This document shows positions 2,660-54,369 of a stretch of DNA of 64,000 nucleotides, piece after piece. Source of the stretch: Octopus sinensis. Taxonomy: Eukaryota. The first letter of the stretch is position 1. Every line of letters starts with the position of its first letter. The notes below the pieces were generated by a model. The model saw only the letters and a program-made list of their open reading frames with translations. It made no database searches and had not been told where the DNA came from. Location of the stretch: assembly GCF_006345805.1 (NCBI RefSeq), contig NC_043016.1, positions 7,378,001-7,442,000 of the forward strand, read 5' to 3'. Position numbers and translations under genes: made by a program.

Positions 2660-3242
2660 TGCTGAGTATTTATTGTTCAGTAGGTCATTTTCTTCTAGGA
2701 ACATTATCAACTTCTTTCTGATGATTTGCTCCATGACTTTACTGATATACAACGTCAGAGATTGGCCTATAGCTTTTCGCCTCTGCTCTGCTTCCACGTT
2801 TGTGCATACCTTCTTTCATCTTTTTAGGAAGTATCCCGCTGGCAAGGAAACTTTGGAAAAGTACCTGAAGTGGTTTTGCTAAATCCTGCTTACATGACTT
2901 TAGGAGAATAGCTGGAAATCCATCAGGACCAGCGGCGGAGCATGACCTCATTTTATCAATAGCTGCTGTTACATCTGTTTCCTCAATGTTAATGTAATCG
3001 ATGGCTGGCACCTCCTATTTTAGAGCTGTGATATCAAAGAATTCAGCTGGATTTTTTATCTGCATGTGTCCAAGGGGGGAAGTGAAGACACTTTTAAATT
3101 GTTCACTGAGTATTTCACTTATCCTTCCTGGGTTTGCTGTCAGTGAGTCATTCACTTGGAACAATGGTCCTATTTTATATTGTATTGTAGCTGTTTCCTT
3201 TACAAATTTATAGAAAGCTCTGTGATTTGTTTTTATGCTTTC

Positions 3243-4580: not shown

Positions 4581-5356
4581 ACAGGTGACACTTGGGGATG
4601 GGCAACCCTCAAGGATCACTGGATACCTGGCCCCAGCCATTACAAAAAAATCAGGGAATACTAGGTCTCCGGCCGACTGGGTCTAAAGGGTCAAAACTGC
4701 TTTTGACCCTGTCCAATCAGTTGCGGCCTCAACCCTAACACTGAGGGGCTTGGTTCCACTACTGCCCAGACCTCTACGAAAGGTCTGTTCTGTCCATTCA
4801 GACTGAATTCCAGGCGGCAGCCCACATACTCAAGCCCTCATTATTTTCTTCCCACAATTGTTCAATCTTCAGAGGCAAAGACACTCCTCCAAACAGCAGT
4901 TCTCACAATTATTTTAAAATTCTTCAAAATGAACAAATTTTTAGTAGGCACAATACTCCTCCAAGCAACAATTCTCATAATTGAGAAAAATATTCACTCA
5001 ACATAAACCTCTAACTAGGAAGATGAATATGCCCCCAAACAAAAATTCTCACAATTAAGCGAGAAAAATATTCGCTCCATGCAGGCAGAACCAGAATTCC
5101 GAATCCAGTAGGACTTCCTACCTGTACAAAAAAAAATTCTCAACAAAAATTCCCACTGGACCCAAAAAAACAGAATCCTACTTTACAATGGAGCTTCAAA
5201 ATTTTTCAATTTAAGACGGCTTCAAAAGCATGCCTCACCGCTTCAGTGCCAAACACAACACTGACTCGCACATGCGCAATGAGGTAAGCCAAGCTACTTA
5301 CCACAAGCCACTCCCACACCTATATATATTATATATAAATAACAATTTACATATAT

Positions 5357-17779: not shown

Positions 17780-18180
17780 CATGGCATGTAGGAGGCACCA
17801 TTCAAGCGTGATCGTTACCAGCATCGCCTTACTGGCACCTGTGGCGTTGGCATGTGTATAAAATTCAAGCGAGGTTGTTGCCAGTACCGCCTGTCTGGCC
17901 CAAAAAATTTGAGCGAGGTCATTGCCAGTACCGCCTGACTGGCCCATGTGTAAAAATTCGAGCATGGTCGTTGCCAGTGCCGCCTGACTGGCCCCCGTGC
18001 CAGTGGCACGTAAAAAGCACCCACTACACTCTTGGAGTGATTGGCGTTAGAAATGGCATCCAGCTGTAGAAACTCTGCCAGATCAAGACTGGAGCTTGGT
18101 GCAGCCACCTGGTAAGCCAGCCCTCAGTCAAACCGTCCAACCCATGGAAAGCGGACGTTAAACGACGACGATGATGATGA
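17780..18180 (+). mobile_element. Solo RTE LINE 3' end with internal subrepeats
   Basis: Repeated 'gttgccagtaccgcctgactggc' units, 'ggcgttagaaatggcatccagctgtagaaac', then 'ggacgttaaacgacgacgatgatga' tail. Confidence 0.85.
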
Positions 18181-21990: not shown

Positions 21991-22368
21991 CATATTCTGT
22001 TGTGTCTCGGGAGAGTCATTTTCTTTTTGTGCCTTATTATGTAACACACTCACCGGTAAAAACTATTGTAAAGGTTGCAAGACGCAACGAAAATTTTAGG
22101 ACAATAAAAATAAGAAAAAAGTGGAAATGTTGCTGGTGAGTGTGTTACATAATAAGGCACAAAAAGAAAATGACTCTTCCCAGACACAATAGAATATGCT
22201 TCAACACACAAACTCATATAAAGAAGAGAGTCAAAACTATTGAAAAGGTTGCAAGATGCAACGAAAATTTAAGGACAATAAAAATAAGAAAAAAGTGGAA
22301 ATGTTGCCGGTGAGTGTATTACATAATAAGGTACAAAAAGAGAATGACTCTCCCCAGACACAACAGAA
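21991..22368. repeat. Inverted plus tandem repeat module
   Basis: 21991-22057 is the reverse complement of about 22132-22199; 22059-22198 is directly repeated at 22233-22368. Confidence 0.85.
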
Positions 22369-22569
22369 TTGATGTTTTCACTTTCACTCATAAAACGTGT
22401 CCTGGCTGTTAGTTGCTCAATAGACTGAGAAATGATTAAATTTACGTGAAACAAATCAGGGTTGGCAAAGGAAGGACATCCAGCAATAGAAAAACTCTGC
22501 CTCAATCGACTCTTGTCAAACCCATGTAATCATGGAAATGTAGATATTAAAGTAATGCTGCTGCTGCTA

Positions 22570-25734: not shown

Positions 25735-27012
25735 TCAGGAACAGAGGTAATATTTATTGATACTGAGAAGCAATATTCATTCTCATTTAAACGTGGGTGT
25801 TCTAATTTTAAATCAAGTAAATTTTAATCATAATAATTAGATATAATGTATAATAATATTTTATCATTTAGTATAACTAGAATAAATCTACTTATTTATA
25901 TATAAATGTAAGATAATATTTAATTAACTTCTAATTTCAGATATTTTAGTTTCTTAATAAAAATCGATAGTATAATATTAGGAGGTATTATTCTAAACTT
26001 TTAATCTTAATTTAGAAACTCAAGTTTAAGAATAACATCAATTTTAAGAATAATAGTATAATCAATATATATTAATTGTATTATAATTATAAAAATAATA
26101 AAAAATTAGATTTTTTACTGATTTTTACTAATTTTACTGACTTTAACATATTTCAAAATATTAAAAAAATTTTTTAATTATATGTTGAGTAATTTAGTTT
26201 ACCTATTTACTGACCTAGAAATTTATTATTTATCAAAGTTAACATGAAAATAAATTAAATTAACCAGAAAAAAAATTAGACTATTCCTATCATACACTCA
26301 CTTCTGGCTTCTCCTGATTACTATTATTATAAATAATAGAAAATACATTTTAAGAAAATACATGTTAATAAGAATTATCTCCCCTACAAAATAGCTCTCA
26401 ATGTTGGATTGTACAATTGCTGGTAGCCATGTTTAATTCATGGAGAGAAAATTATCATACAGATAAGTTAACATTTCTCTTTACTAACATTTCTTTTTCC
26501 TACTTTTATTCCACATTTCTGTTCATCATTTACTAAAGTTAAATTATTCCAACAACTTCTAGTTATATAATTTTAGTTTGTCATGTCTTAATATACGATG
26601 TAAATAACAAAATAAGTTTATATAAGATAGACCTGAAGATTGGCAATATATTTGTATTAATATGGTATTGTATAGAAACATTCTATTTCAGCATATCGAG
26701 GAATATGTTGTCATGAAATGCGCATAGTCTAAATAATGTAAAGTATATGATTTGCAATAAGAATTGAAGGTATTAATTTTGATAATTTGGAATAAGAATC
26801 GTAGGTATTAATTTTGATAATTTTAACATTTAGTCCTATATGTACCTATTGTGGATAATGTCATTCAATGATGATTGAGTAGCTTGAGGGTGATTCTGTC
26901 TCTTAAACCAATCTATTTATATGTATATAATACAGTGAGTAATTCATTTTAGAACCACTAAATTGAACTTCTCTCTCCAGTGAACTCGGAAATAACTTCT
27001 CTAATATTAATA

Positions 27013-27015
<3 letters not shown>
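25735..27015 (+). mobile_element. Very AT-rich decayed element, probable Penelope-like 3' region
   Basis: Contains the hammerhead fold at 26628-26731; flanks align with 52960-53615 ('agataagttaacattt' upstream; 'gattgagt..ttga.ggtg.ttctgtctct' downstream). Confidence 0.5.
26628..26731 (+). ncRNA. Putative type I hammerhead ribozyme
   Basis: TAGAC-CTGAAGA-T-TGGCAATATATT...AATATGTTGTCA-T-GAAA-TGCGCA-TA-GTCTA: 5-bp stem I, 12-bp stem II with two G-U pairs, palindromic stem III. Confidence 0.75.
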
Positions 27016-27059
<44 letters not shown>

Positions 27060-28716: not shown

Positions 28717-29008
28717 TCAAGAATAGTATGTTGGTGGTGGTGGTGTTGATGACAGGCATAGCTGCTTCCCAACCATATGGTTCTGGGTTCAGTCTCCCTG
28801 TGTGGTACCTTGGGCAAATGTCTTCTACTATAGCCTTGTGAGCCTTCCAGACAGAAAATGAAAGAATATGCGTGTGTTTGTGTGTGTGTGTGTGTCTATC
28901 TGTCATTGTCCCACCTCACTGCTTGACAACCAATGTTACTGTGTTACATCCCTGTAACTTAGCGGTTCAACAATTGGTACTTATTTGGACTAAACAGAAT
29001 AAGTACCT

Positions 29009-29240
29009 ATTTCTTTACTACCCACAAGGGGCTAAACACAGAGAAGACAAACAAGGACAGACAAACGGATTAAGTCGATTATATTGACCCCAGTGCATAA
29101 CTGGTACTTATTTAATCGACCCCGAACGGATGAAAGGCAAAGTCGACCTCGGCGGAATTTGAACTCAGAACGTAGCGGCAGACGAAATACTGCTAAGTGT
29201 TTCGCCCGGCGTGCTAACGTTTCTGCCAGCTCGCTGCCTT
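29009..29240 (-). mobile_element. Young family B SINE nested in a family A SINE (about 28753-29380)
   Basis: CpG-rich copy flanked by 'gaataagtacct' at 28997-29008 and 29245-29256. Confidence 0.85.
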
Positions 29241-29597
29241 ATGCGAATAAGTACCTTTAAGAAAAGAAGCACTGAGGTCGATTCATTTGACTAAAGATTC
29301 TTCAAGGTGGTGCCCCAGGATGACTGTAGTCTAATGACTGTAGTCTAATGACTGAAACAAGTAAGAGATAAAAAATAAAAAGCATAATAAAAATAGAATG
29401 ATACACACATACATACACATGCATAAACATAGGCAGAGACATGGCTGTGTGGTAAGAAGCTTGCTTCCCAACCACACATTTTGCGTGGAACCTTGGGCTA
29501 GTGCTTTCTACTATAGTCTTGGGCCGACCAAAGCCTTGTGAGTGGATTTGGTAGATGGAAACTGAAAGAAGTCCGTCATATATATATATATATATAT

Positions 29598-30640: not shown

Positions 30641-30994
30641 AAAAGGTGGGAGTAGGTCTCTAAGTGGTTATTTGACTTGCAAGACATAAAAACTAAATCA
30701 TCTTCAAATCACTGCCTATCTTCTTACTCAAGGAAAGATACATGGGACCATGAAGTTCTAGATATATTATGTCTAGAAATAAGATTAAGTCATGGCTGAA
30801 ACATCCTTTTTCATAGATCCTCTTATTCAGAGTTGATTTCAGACTAAACAACAGTAACAAGGAGGGATGCAATGGATAAGTTAATCCTAGATGTATTTAG
30901 ACTGAAAATAAAATGAAAAAATGCTGTTGATAATTGATCCTCTTAATAATGATATGCTGGGCTAAACCACAACTGAGCAAAAGTTAAAATTATC

Positions 30995-31228
30995 CTTTTT
31001 TTTACTAGCCACAAGGGGTTAAACACAGAGAGGACAAACAAGGACAGACAAACGAATTAAGTCGATTATATCGACCCCAGTGCATAACTGGTACTTATTT
31101 AATCGACCCCGAAAGGATGAAAGGCAAAGTCGACCTCGGCGGAATTTGAACCCAGAACATAGCGGCAGACGAAATACTGCAAAGCTTTTCACCCGGCATG
31201 CTAACGATTCTGCCAGCTCACCACCTTA
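30995..31228 (-). mobile_element. SINE family B
   Basis: Nearly identical to 29009-29240; flanked by 'taaaattatcctt' on both sides (TSD). Confidence 0.85.
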
Positions 31229-34873: not shown

Positions 34874-35799
34874 TACTCGAAAGAATTCAACTCTGTCTGA
34901 TTTTTTATTTTATTTATATTCTTATAATATTATTGTTTGTCTTATTGAACAAATGAAATATTGAAAATTAAATATTAAATGTCTATTCTCATTGAACTAG
35001 TATACTTTCTTGCATTTAAGCATTCATCAGGTTCAGATTGTTCAGATTGTAACAGGAACGCTTCACATCTATAGCAATTGGAAGGGCGTGACCCAACTGA
35101 AATAAACATTAACAACTGTGTGATGTGAGGGCTAAGGAGAAAAGAAAGTGTCACCTCTGTAGTTTGCAAATTACCACTATACTGATACGTAACTGGACAG
35201 AATAAATTTACAATCTATAAATGTCATTGAATAACCAGTCACTCATCTGGGAAGGCCTTGAAATCAATGTTACCATCTGGGGACTATGTGTGACCCAGTG
35301 ATAATATAAAGACTGAAAGGAGGTCTGCAATCAAATAACTTTACTCAACACTTTGCAACTGAATCAGTGGAAGCAAAGATGCCTCTCATTTACTTGACAA
35401 TTTATGCACCACATTGCAGAAATCACAATGTAAGTGTATGTCAAAGCAACCTGTTACACTGTTGTACCATTGAATTACAAATGATGCTTGGGTAACCCTA
35501 CAGCTTCCAAGAGTATAACTGTATTCGTCTTTGCTTAGATAAAATGACAAAATTGATACAACTGAGTGGGCAAACAAAAATATGAGACACAGCCTAGTGC
35601 TTTTTTTATGTTGATAAGCCTGGTACTTATTCTATTAGTTTGTTCTTGTGAAACCAATAAGTTATGGGGATGTAAATAAATGAACAGTAGTTGTGAAGCA
35701 GTGATGAGGCCGAAACACAGAGACAAAGACACACACATACACTTGCATATATACATACATATATATCGATTGATTTGTTTCAGTTCCTGTCAACGAAAT

Positions 35800-46866: not shown

Positions 46867-47727
46867 TTGTAAACAGACCGAAAGGCTTTGTAATTTATGG
46901 AGAGAAAGCTGGTATTTGTTTGTATTTAAAAAATGTTGCTTCAGATCGAAGAATAAAATATTATTATGATATATTATTGTACAATTATATAGATGTGTGT
47001 GTTTGGGTGTGTATATATATATATATATATAAATACAATAATAAAAAACATGAAAATCAGACCGTGTTGTAACTTTATTCAGTTGATATATATATATATA
47101 TAGACACACACAAATGTTTGGTATGTGTATGTACAAGTGTGTGCATATGTGTGTGTGTGTATGTAGTATTTGTAAACAAACCAAAAAGCTTTGTAAGTAA
47201 CAGAGAGAAAACTACTATTTGCCTGTGTTTAAAACTTGTCATATGATTTATGGTATATTATCATACAGTTATATATTATATACATGTGTATATATATATA
47301 TATATATATAACGGGAAGCTTTATGAAAATAAACAAAAGATGAAGGCAGGTGGAATACAAACAAACAATTGTATTAGTATGGCGCTCAGGAATATAAATA
47401 AAACAAGTCTTTTACGTTTCGAGCCTACGCTCTTCAACAGAAAGATACACAGAAAAGAAACGCAGAAAGAAACAAGGAGAGAAAAAAAATGCGTGCAGAG
47501 GCTAGCGAATCAACATGGTGATCTGATCAAACGTGAGACGCAAGAGCGAAATTATATATATATATATATATCAATCAATATAAGGGTAACAAAAAATTCA
47601 AGAAAAATTTTCTGCAACCAGCGGTCAAGTGAGAAAATAGAGATAGTCACAGACTAATAATATATTCAACAAATAATTAAGGAATGACCCTGAGAAGGTC
47701 GTTCGACTCACTTTGTTTGTATATATA

Positions 47728-47778
<51 letters not shown>

Positions 47779-47789
47779 ATATAATATAT

Positions 47790-48067
47790 ATAAGTGACAG
47801 GGACGTAAACACACCAGCATCGGTTGTCAAGCAATGCTAGGGGGACAAACACAGTCACCAAACACACACACACATAATATTATATATATATATATACCTG
47901 TATACGACAGGCTTCTTTCAGTTTCCGCCTTCCAAATCCACTCACAAGGCATTGGTCGGCCCTAGGCTATAGTAGAAGACACTTGCCCAGATGCCACAGA
48001 ACCTGGAACCATGTGGTTGGTAAACAAGCTACTTACCACACAGCCACTCCTTCGCCTATATATATAT

Positions 48068-48121
<54 letters not shown>

Positions 48122-48189
48122 AGTGACAGGGACAAACACACCAGCATCGGTTGTCAAGCAATGCTAGGGGGACAAACACAGTCACACAA

Positions 48190-48224
<35 letters not shown>

Positions 48225-48381
48225 CATGTATACGACAGGCTTCTTTCAGTTTCCGCCTTCCAAATCCACTCACAAGGCATTGGTCGGCCCAGGCTATAGT
48301 AGAAGACACTTGCCCAAGATGCCACAGAACTGGAACCATGTGGTTGGTAAACAAGCTACTTACCACACAGCCACTCCTGCG

Positions 48382-48386
<5 letters not shown>
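47790..48386 (-). mobile_element. Tandem pair of near-identical truncated family A SINEs
   Basis: 47790-48058 and 48120-48386 share the same truncation point and diagnostic variants, separated by (TA)n. Confidence 0.85.
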
Positions 48387-48422
<36 letters not shown>

Positions 48423-52644: not shown

Positions 52645-52940
52645 AGGCCGACGAACTGGCAGAATCGTTAACACGCTGGGCGAAATGCTTAGCGGTATTT
52701 CGTCTGTATTTACGTTCTGAGTTCAAATTCCACCGAGGTCGACTTTGCCTTTCATCTTTTCAGGGTCGATTAAATAAGTACCAGTTGCGCACTGGGGTTG
52801 ATATAATCGACTTAATCCGTTTTTCTGTTCTTGTTTGTCCTCTCTGTGTTTAGCCCCTTGTGGGTAGTAAAGAAATAGGTATTTCGTCTGTCTTTACGTT
52901 CTGGCTTTAAATTCTGCCGCAGTCGACTTTGCCTTTCATT
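52645..52940 (+). mobile_element. SINE family B with partial tandem re-copy
   Basis: Full copy to about 52881, then a repeat of 'ggtatttcgtctgt...gtcgactttgcctttcat'. Confidence 0.85.
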
Positions 52941-53380
52941 TATTTGTAGTACTTCCTATACATAGGTATTATCAAACGCGGATTTTACCTTATTTGCAAG
53001 ATGTAGCTATGCTTAATTTTCGCCGAGGAAAGAAAAGATAAGTTAACATTTGTTTTATTTTCGTCTCTATTTTTATTTCCTTATAATTTCATTTTTATTT
53101 CGTATTTGTTTATTCGTAATTCTTTATTCGTTATTCATAACTTTTATTCGTAATTTTTACTCGTACTTTTTTCTCTTTGAATTTTTTTTCCTTAAATGTT
53201 TATTCCTTGAATTTTTATTCCTTAAATTTTTACTCCTTAAGTTTTTAACATTCAGTTACTATTTCAATTTATTATTTGCATTTCTATTCATTTGTATATG
53301 TTAAGTAAGATTATACTAAAGATATAGAGTATCATGGAGGTATATAAGAGGTAGGGGTAGTGAAAAATGTTGAGGAATCT

Positions 53381-53479
53381 AGACCTGAAGATTGGGAGTA
53401 CGTCGACCCGATTAAGTATTGAAACTAGATACCTCGTATCTAATCAAACCGACGTACTTTCATGAAACGCGTGTAGTCT
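53381..53479 (+). ncRNA. Putative type I hammerhead ribozyme
   Basis: AGAC-CTGAAGA-T-TGGGAGTACGTCG...CGACGTACTTTCA-T-GAAA-CGCGTG-TA-GTCT; 13-bp stem II; GUA triplet. Confidence 0.78.
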
Positions 53480-54369
53480 TATAAACGGAAAATATGGAAT
53501 TCAGAATAGATATAGTTAGTATAAGATTTAATATTTAACATTTTATGGAGTGGTCGGTTATAAAATCTTCAGTGTTGATTGAGTTGAAGGTGGTTCTGTC
53601 TCTAAAACTACTTATATATATATATATATATTATATATATATATATATCTATATATAATATATATATAACTTTCAAAAGGGGATATATTTGTTAATAAGT
53701 AAGAAAAGAATTTGATATTTAACTTCATTTGAACTGGTGCACTATTCTCCATGATTAATAATAAATCTGTCATCATTTTTTGCTCACACATGTATGTACT
53801 AATACATCTATAAAATTTCCTTATTACAAACAGCAGAGAAAAAATGTGCGGCAGATATCAACAGATACGGAAGTGTAGTCTCATAGCACACCCTTGAGAG
53901 TATTAGTAACACACATTTAGTGTTTTAAAAATACTGAAGAGAAAAGTAAACCATGCTGAAATTCTTCACCCTGAAACTGATAGTGATAATTAGAAAATAA
54001 TTTTTTTTAAAAATGATTTACTGTAAAGCGTATATTATATAAAGATGAAATAAAACAGAGTAAATTTTTAAAAATCTTTCTTAAAGAGTAGAATAAAAGA
54101 ATACGATACAGAAATAAATAATCCCCCAAAATTGATATGTAGGTTTTTGAGTGTAAAACAGAATAAACTTCAGGAATGGTTGTGTGGTTTATGATGCTCG
54201 CTTTGCAACTTGTGGGTTCAGGTTCAATCTCATTGCATGGCATCCTGGGCAAATGCTTTCTACTATAGTCCTGGGTTGACCAAATCCTTGCAAGAACAGA
54301 TTTGATACATGGGAACTGTGTGGAAGCCTGTTGTGTGTGTGTGTGTGTTTGTGCATATATATATGTATG

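Follow-up and report, generated by a model that had tools for sequence, protein, structure and literature searches.

The motif at positions 53381-53479 of the window (the whole 64-kb stretch of Octopus sinensis DNA that was analysed) is probably a type I hammerhead ribozyme (HHR) of a Hydra-clade Penelope-like element (PLE), carried by a truncated copy with no sign of selection after its insertion, and its source element likely cut its tandem transcript as a dimer of two hammerheads; this combined reading, built on family alignments and folding models, is held with good though not full confidence. HHRs in Hydra-clade PLEs, including one from an octopus, are already published, and the new feature is the length of the arm: stem II measures 69-85 nt, about three times the size in the published relatives.

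The hammerheads of the window

By string check and descriptor scan, two long-armed HHRs were located, named copy A (family A) and copy B (family B), with the following parts:

53381-53479, plus strand: type I hammerhead of family A, copy A
53381-53384 and 53476-53479: AGAC and GUCU of copy A
53385-53391, plus strand: core CUGAAGA (C3-A9)
53392 and 53463: the two U of the U·U at 10.1/11.1
53393-53462, plus strand: long stem II, from folding and family alignment
53393-53405 with 53450-53462: basal helix of stem II, 13 bp, followed distally by a 10-nt 5' bulge and then the middle helix
53426-53442: terminal hairpin of stem II (TAGATAC/GTATCTA)
53464-53467: GAAA
53467-53474: self-complementary stem III 8-mer ACGCGUGU, predicted to pair intermolecularly, with two G·U in copy A
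53475: A17 of the triplet GUA, predicted cleavage after A53475
26628-26731, plus strand: type I hammerhead of family B, copy B
26633-26639, 26641-26713 and 26715-26718: CUGAAGA, stem II and GAAA of copy B
26718-26725: stem III 8-mer AUGCGCAU of copy B
26726: A17 of copy B, predicted cleavage after A26726; the triplet is AUA, not GUA

In both copies the CUGANGA core, GAAA and NUH are arranged as in type I hammerheads, stem I being the open one, and every string that the original prediction had quoted for them is in its place. Stem I is 4-5 bp long, and the core of copy A is closed by the 13 bp of stem II after one U·U. In the hammerhead numbering the canonical pair at this position is R10.1-Y11.1, which is absent from copy A, where the U·U stands instead. 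One T of the middle helix is missing from copy A near 53447, an absence that is also evident against public contigs.

Copies A and B are not chance motifs. Their stem II folds better than 200 of 200 dinucleotide shuffles (z -4.18 for copy A and -3.25 for copy B), with a weaker effect for the whole motif (z -2.02 and -0.81), and the exact core pattern has 173 matches in the whole genome, against none for the reversed control, distributed over at least six families. The local Rfam scan of 53330-53530, with E up to 10, matched no hammerhead family; its models may be unable to accommodate the 72-nt arm. Over the 64-kb window, the best 150 of 206 Rfam matches were almost all to microRNA models and none to a hammerhead; these microRNA matches were far under the gathering scores, mostly lay on microsatellites, and were discarded.

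The descriptor scan of the window returned a third type I HHR, at 34994-35035 on the minus strand, which has a 14-nt stem II, an A·A beside the core and the palindrome AGUAUACU; it lies ~120 nt before a (TA)n tract and is likely another PLE 3' fragment, and a similar HHR occurs in locus L048. Among the other repeats, two-copy tandem duplications occupy 47726-48419 (327 bp) and 22059-22373 (174 bp), and an abundant SINE-like family ending in (GAT)n is found at 17988, 39323, 50899, 59667 and 60513 (repeat families D16, D19 and D20); it may resemble octopus SINEs.

The host element and its dispersed copies

The two hammerheads belong to the following insertions:

52937-53612, plus strand: 5'-truncated PLE copy of family A, 3' UTR/pLTR only, with no ORF
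53613-53668, strand not applicable: (TA)n tract at the 3' end of the family-A element, its insertion target
25802-27017, plus strand: 5'-truncated PLE copy of sister family B, by BLAST to family-B loci
27018-27059: (TA)n tract at the 3' end of the family-B element

From 52937 onward the sequence aligns with longer family-A copies (90% for L007), while family B has the endonuclease (EN) upstream in L044 and L236; the distance to the family consensus is 2.7% for copy A and 4.3% for copy B. The flanks of the two copies had been described as only loosely alignable, a description that has to be qualified: the 3' end is homologous, with 53568-53622 at ~80% to family-B loci. A different dispersed repeat adjoins the 5' end of the family-A copy at 52649-52939, and occurs also at 28994-29266 and 30988-31219.

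Read upstream on the same strand, the longer family-A copies contain the EN C-terminus (CNCRDKNNC linker, YIGST, CILC...E...N...CKH) and then pieces of the reverse transcriptase (RT), which in L127 are broken and include DKT (SDKTRNLY), MGAPDS and GLYRDD; the RT of the host element has DKT in place of DKG, and YRDD. The EN pattern consists of a CxCX5C linker, CxxC before E and CxH after N, with no CCHH, and by eye its columns are the same as those of Fig. S7 in PMC8557442. At the N-terminal RWK position, a region that the family-A copies examined do not include, family D and a short-stem family have KWK and the 85-nt-arm family Y85, discussed below, has RWR. In sister families the frame is open over 859 and 960 aa and includes RT and GIY-YIG; the ESM Atlas places the 859-aa frame with the PF26215 and GIY-YIG clusters (0.96-0.98), and the nearest named homologue is an Argonauta hians protein. 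Pfam gave no significant match on ORF pieces or full frames, and the assignment as RT and EN is therefore based on motifs, homologues and the Atlas. By its protein sequence the host, which the original prediction had left unnamed, is a Hydra-clade PLE, the comparison with the Hydra reference proteins having been made by eye.

Other traits of PLEs are present too, namely partial tandems (pLTR), 5' truncation, inverted 5' segments and a tail, and both window copies and other family loci are inserted in (TA)n. The elements exceed 3 kb and have long 3' UTRs and N-rich inserts, in which they differ from the published Hydra-clade PLEs. By eye, a 3' UTR motif starting TTGTTCCC is common to three families, several hundred bases 5' of the HHR (L026, oriented, ~390-440; L092, minus strand, ~3090-3135; L163, minus strand, ~5310-5350), with a TATA-like box downstream of it in family A. 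In L180, ~48 RT codons are tandemly repeated about ten times upstream of a PLE copy.

Hydra-clade PLEs, as treated in passages of Craig et al. (2021, PMC8557442) and including Hydra-1_Obim of Octopus bimaculoides, share DKT, the CxC-type linker, CxxC, CxH and (TA)n targets with the present element, and their HHRs are likewise of type I, on the sense strand and near the 3' end. File S2 of that work has 26 Hydra HHR rows, with a stem II of at most 7 bp and a loop 2 of at most 10 nt (26 nt or less in total), and with U·U beside the core in 14 of the 26; this U·U and a short self-complementary stem III recur in the present families, which differ in their 69-85 nt stem II with bulges. Calling the long stem II unusual was thus correct, while the U·U at 10.1/11.1, also presented as unusual, is typical of the clade; in sister families this position is U-A, A-U or G·U. 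The present families lie outside the supplement of PMC8557442, since three short motifs of theirs matched nothing there, and this paper was the only one found to combine hammerheads with the octopus, cephalopods or the Hydra clade.

As for the metazoan PLE min-HHRs, the part of Cervera and de la Pena (2014, PMC4209133) drawn on here agrees in the pLTR location, the palindromic stem III, the dimer model and the many variable families per genome, mostly as solitary truncated copies; the min-HHRs differ in having G10.1-C11.1, one extra nucleotide after A9 and a helix II of up to 7-8 bp.

BLAST searches of the 2.72-Gb genome gave 375 (A) and 441 (B) candidates, of which 40 per search were scored. 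The family copies have a common 3' end running into (TA)n, ragged 5' ends and often an inverted 5' piece, and the median divergence of the dispersed family is ~4.6%; contigs of four public sequencing runs (type guessed or unknown, ends and strand not readable) also contain family copies. That these copies are non-autonomous retrozymes spreading via circular RNA, and not PLE fragments, is very unlikely and largely refuted: two of 30 loci (L026, L028) do have two HHRs ~800 bp apart, and a preprint, in the part available, ties animal retrozymes to PLE pLTRs, but the copies mostly stand alone, ragged at the 5' end and fixed at the 3' end, the longer ones run on into EN and RT, and they are solitary 3' fragments of a coding element, unlike small non-coding tandem units with one HHR each. 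Two further HHR pairs, 2.2-2.3 kb apart, were set aside; neither has an ORF between its HHRs, one being two separate insertions and the other a local duplication.

Pairing of stem II and the dimer model

The proposal that RNA structure was under selection in the source elements is borne out for stem II, the pairing of which is supported as selected by covariation among genomic copies, collected and aligned as family consensuses (one each for A, B, B2, C and D; C2, with two copies, was left out). Over the first ten stem II pairs, 49 of 50 cells are paired, compared with a mean of 41.6 when the 3' letters are permuted among families (P 4e-5), in a set of five related families that amounts to few independent events and with a structure drawn from these same sequences. 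Against a neutral-substitution null, the comparisons of A to B (P 0.005), A to B2 (P 0.011) and A to D (P 0.002) are significant, and only A to C is not (P 0.24). A further test gives 93.2% pairing vs 81.3% when shuffled, the former value being reached by none of 500 shuffles, and slid partners give 28-66%; pairs altered on both sides are no more numerous than in shuffles (224/500). RNAalifold, unprompted, returned nine basal pairs, five of them with two-sided changes.

Between the two window copies, 9 of the 20 bases in the first ten pairs differ, four pairs by two-sided and one by one-sided change, and all ten still pair; the wording "largely replaced" is to be adjusted to this figure, and the conservation of pairing stands. 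Stem II of families A, B, B2, C and D is homologous, 69-78 nt long, and keeps its basal 10 bp paired as the sequence turns over, with a common layout of a 12-13 bp helix, a 9-10 nt 5' bulge and a second helix. This arm has a single origin in the A-D group, because 20 hand-chosen representatives of A, B, B2, C, C2 and D, both window copies included, align over its entire length. Pairing in the middle helix is weaker (76.8%), and the register of the terminal hairpin differs from family to family; the TAGATAC/GTATCTA hairpin, described as extra in copy A, belongs to the family-A consensus and has counterparts at the same place in B, C and D.

A mutational origin of the complementarity, by inverted duplication or template switching and with no selection, is extremely improbable. 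PLE insertions readily produce inversions, and in the E, F and G families the AT-rich arms resemble local duplications; the A-D basal helix, however, is gapless through the families, its strands are not mirror copies, and it changed one pair at a time by way of G·U, as in pair 6 with G-C, G·U and A-U.

The genomic copies themselves give no sign of selection since insertion, and copy A of the window is an inert fragment. In 28 family-A copies (2 of 30 loci were left out, the match being offset or on the other side), singleton non-CpG changes number 25/1312 in paired stem II, 3/335 in the core and 103/5381 in the flanks (p 1.0 and 0.21); in 30 family-B copies, chosen like those of family A by BLAST, the values are 31/1512, 8/360 and 174/7917 (p 0.77 and 0.86). 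When all variants are counted, the family-A core is less changed than the flanks (3/335 vs 204/5353), a deficit that is gone with singletons only (p 0.21); with the shared variants, it may stem from selection that acted among the source elements. At CpG sites, 11-24% of cells carry a change.

This decay also accounts for stem III, whose change from CGCGTG to TGCGCA had been read as part of the evidence for selection. Both hexamers are self-complementary as claimed; they are not evidence of selection, being found in 2 of 44 family-A and 1 of 20 family-B copies, respectively. The window difference is private decay, because copy B, at 26.6 kb, has undergone CpG transitions: it lies two of them away from CGCGCG, the commonest hexamer of family B (5/20), the commonest one in family A being CACGTG (25/44), so the change at the family level is CACGTG vs CGCGCG. 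The palindrome as such is nevertheless a genuine rule of these families: among the family consensus hexamers, 10 of 12 are perfect palindromes, with four different sequences, and the other two are one CpG change off; Y85 has CAGCTG.

Regarding the fold of two copies, the double hammerhead is the cofold minimum, with -61.7 kcal/mol for copy A and -54.3 kcal/mol for copy B, against -51.6 and -41.8 kcal/mol for two separate monomers; the active monomer fold lies 2-4 kcal/mol above the monomer minimum in both. The consensus sequences of C, D, S16, E44, E70 and G74 have a cofold minimum that lies 1-7 kcal/mol below their dimer fold. In the proposed mechanism, the two HHRs of a partial-tandem transcript would be joined by their palindromes, with an exchange of stem I strands, and cleavage would take place after the NUA triplet of each, probably slowly and possibly assisted by the protein of the element. 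Selection on stem II would mainly concern the closing of the core with a stable helix, leaving the distal arm free to grow, be remodelled or be deleted. PLE hammerhead variants that cleave as dimers have reportedly been described by Lunse, Weinberg and Breaker. The available portions of two papers agree on weak and dimeric cleavage of PLE HHRs, in metazoans only as dimers in the first (PMC4209133, PMC6765202).

Another close system is Poseidon PAc from Anolis carolinensis (Frangieh et al. 2024, PMC11167929, in the sections used here), which is similar in the HHR 5' of the internal reverse-transcription start and "tail" and in the AT-rich targets; it differs in belonging to another clade, in its ORF, which begins within stem II, and in its cleavage, which has been shown to require the protein of the element. 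Those same sections report HHR mutants with no effect on insertion in vitro and no RNA-seq reads ending at the site. They favour, although with a quite low probability, a fold that is conserved without cutting at a meaningful rate and is retained as a structural signal for the ribonucleoprotein, a reading with which the lack of G10.1-C11.1 and the 10-13 bp helix, which leaves no loop 2 near stem I, are also consistent. Insertions extend ~137 nt beyond the predicted cut, so the template would be RNA uncut at the HHR site, and reverse transcription would start downstream of it. Yet all families examined, down to 44% protein identity, retain the catalytic core, a U16.1-H17 site and the palindrome of stem III, which would be needless for a purely structural role.

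Contacts between loop 2 and stem I by base pairing were sought in the present families, and no candidate was better than shuffles. A pseudoknot between the stem II bulge and the sequence adjacent to stem I was not supported (P 0.12-0.75 in single-family shuffles; in the diagonal permutation, P 0.058 for the downstream and 0.40 for the upstream side). An extended stem I was rejected as a general feature, being marginal in A and B (P ~0.045-0.05) and absent from B2, C and D. Viral type I HHRs with a 6-8 bp helix II lack recognisable loop contacts, according to the consulted part of PMC13725137.

Arm length across families and its possible meaning

In the related families of this genome, stem II spans 16-85 nt. 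Pattern matches number 5514 for a stem II of 14-44 nt (control 3) and 802 for 45-74 nt (control 2), and Y85, a young family with an 85-nt arm of unrelated sequence, adds 696 exact matches (control 0). These long-arm HHRs are missed by short-spacer surveys, one published core search having allowed a spacer of 7-17 nt in the part of it at hand, and by Rfam. Among the short-arm HHRs of the clade, at least 5514 genome-wide, many form inverted pairs ~50-350 bp apart, and one sub-lineage has arms of ~39, 44, 66 and 70 nt.

Y85 has near-identical copies with an open 960-aa frame between two 85-nt-arm HHRs 5.6 kb apart (L164, 1171 and 6773; L165, minus strand, 1352 and 6922 from its end). Its arm repeats the layout of helix, 5' bulge and helix of families A-D. 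In 20 copies (L248-L267), hand-picked from the 696 to cover the subtypes and read by eye, the basal helix of some sub-lineages has A-U where others have G-C, and the distal helix runs through C-G, U·G and U-A; this apparent covariation of the distal helix argues that the arm is not wholly free.

The protein tree, with 21 genomic rows and three outgroups, joins A, B, C and D (96/93), places Y85 as the deepest branch and nests forms of 17-44 nt in a clade with forms of 66-77 nt (95/88). It should be noted that eight rows cover less than half of the columns, that the RT of D spans an apparent deletion, that row L130 is tied to family A through DNA similarity alone, and that B2 and C lack protein rows of their own, the "C" rows being C2 copies. 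The long-arm rows as a single clade are rejected (p-AU 1.4e-7), with four changes required, for a long/short cut (≥66 vs ≤48 nt) set after the first tree. With the outgroup rooting, a long-armed ancestor and repeated shortening would be the simplest reading, and repeated gains are possible too. The distal arm is likely dispensable, or optional, because abundant short forms sit within the long-stem lineages.

For HHRs that are natural or belong to retrotransposons, no description of a stem II that is long or extended was found in a search that lay outside most subscription journals and the supplements of PMC4209133, which hold more HHR families. A precedent for a long arm is offered by the PLE-X1 HHRs of Selaginella (PMC8557442, File S2), with enlarged loops 2 of 35 and 29 nt that are flagged as deviating; they belong to EN-lacking plant elements, the arm is shorter, and the File S2 table has no covariation. 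The "HHR_half_core" of Naiad was considered as a long-arm type I HHR and rejected: by eye, the consensus listed just before Naiad_Omin has, at its 3' end, GAAA before CUGAUGA, which is not the same order of elements.

It is conceivable, although rather unlikely, that the long stem II is a functional domain in itself, for instance a docking site for an RT/EN protein that chaperones or gates cleavage. The recurrence of the helix, 5' bulge and helix layout in A, B, B2, C and D and, with unrelated sequence, in Y85, the paired changes in both Y85 helices (20 hand-picked copies, by eye), the occupation of the basal tree branches by long arms and the protein assistance of the anole HHR, as given in the part of PMC11167929 consulted, would fit such a domain. 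On the other side, the bulge sequence is unconserved, the middle helix and the register of the terminal hairpin are loose, E70 and G74 are long-armed with no such bulge, short-arm HHRs are far commoner than long ones, and no pairing of the bulge with the stem I flank is better than shuffles. The preferred reading, a dimer whose core is closed by the basal helix, would leave the distal arm optional.

The part that the HHRs play in PLE transposition is of interest because they cleave weakly and, in one in vitro system (PMC11167929, same sections), were not needed for insertion. A single genome here offers a natural series of related HHRs, with a stem II of 16-85 nt, a known protein tree and young families of both kinds, and the roles of the arm and of the U·U junction are therefore directly testable. 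In its boldest and doubtful form, the finding would be an undescribed HHR architecture, in which a selected stem II of 70-85 nt recruits the protein of the element and so switches cleavage, present in two lineages with unrelated arms, repeatedly lost, and overlooked by short-spacer descriptors and Rfam; if this were true, the young family with the 960-aa frame and HHRs 5.6 kb apart would make such a protein-recruiting arm testable.
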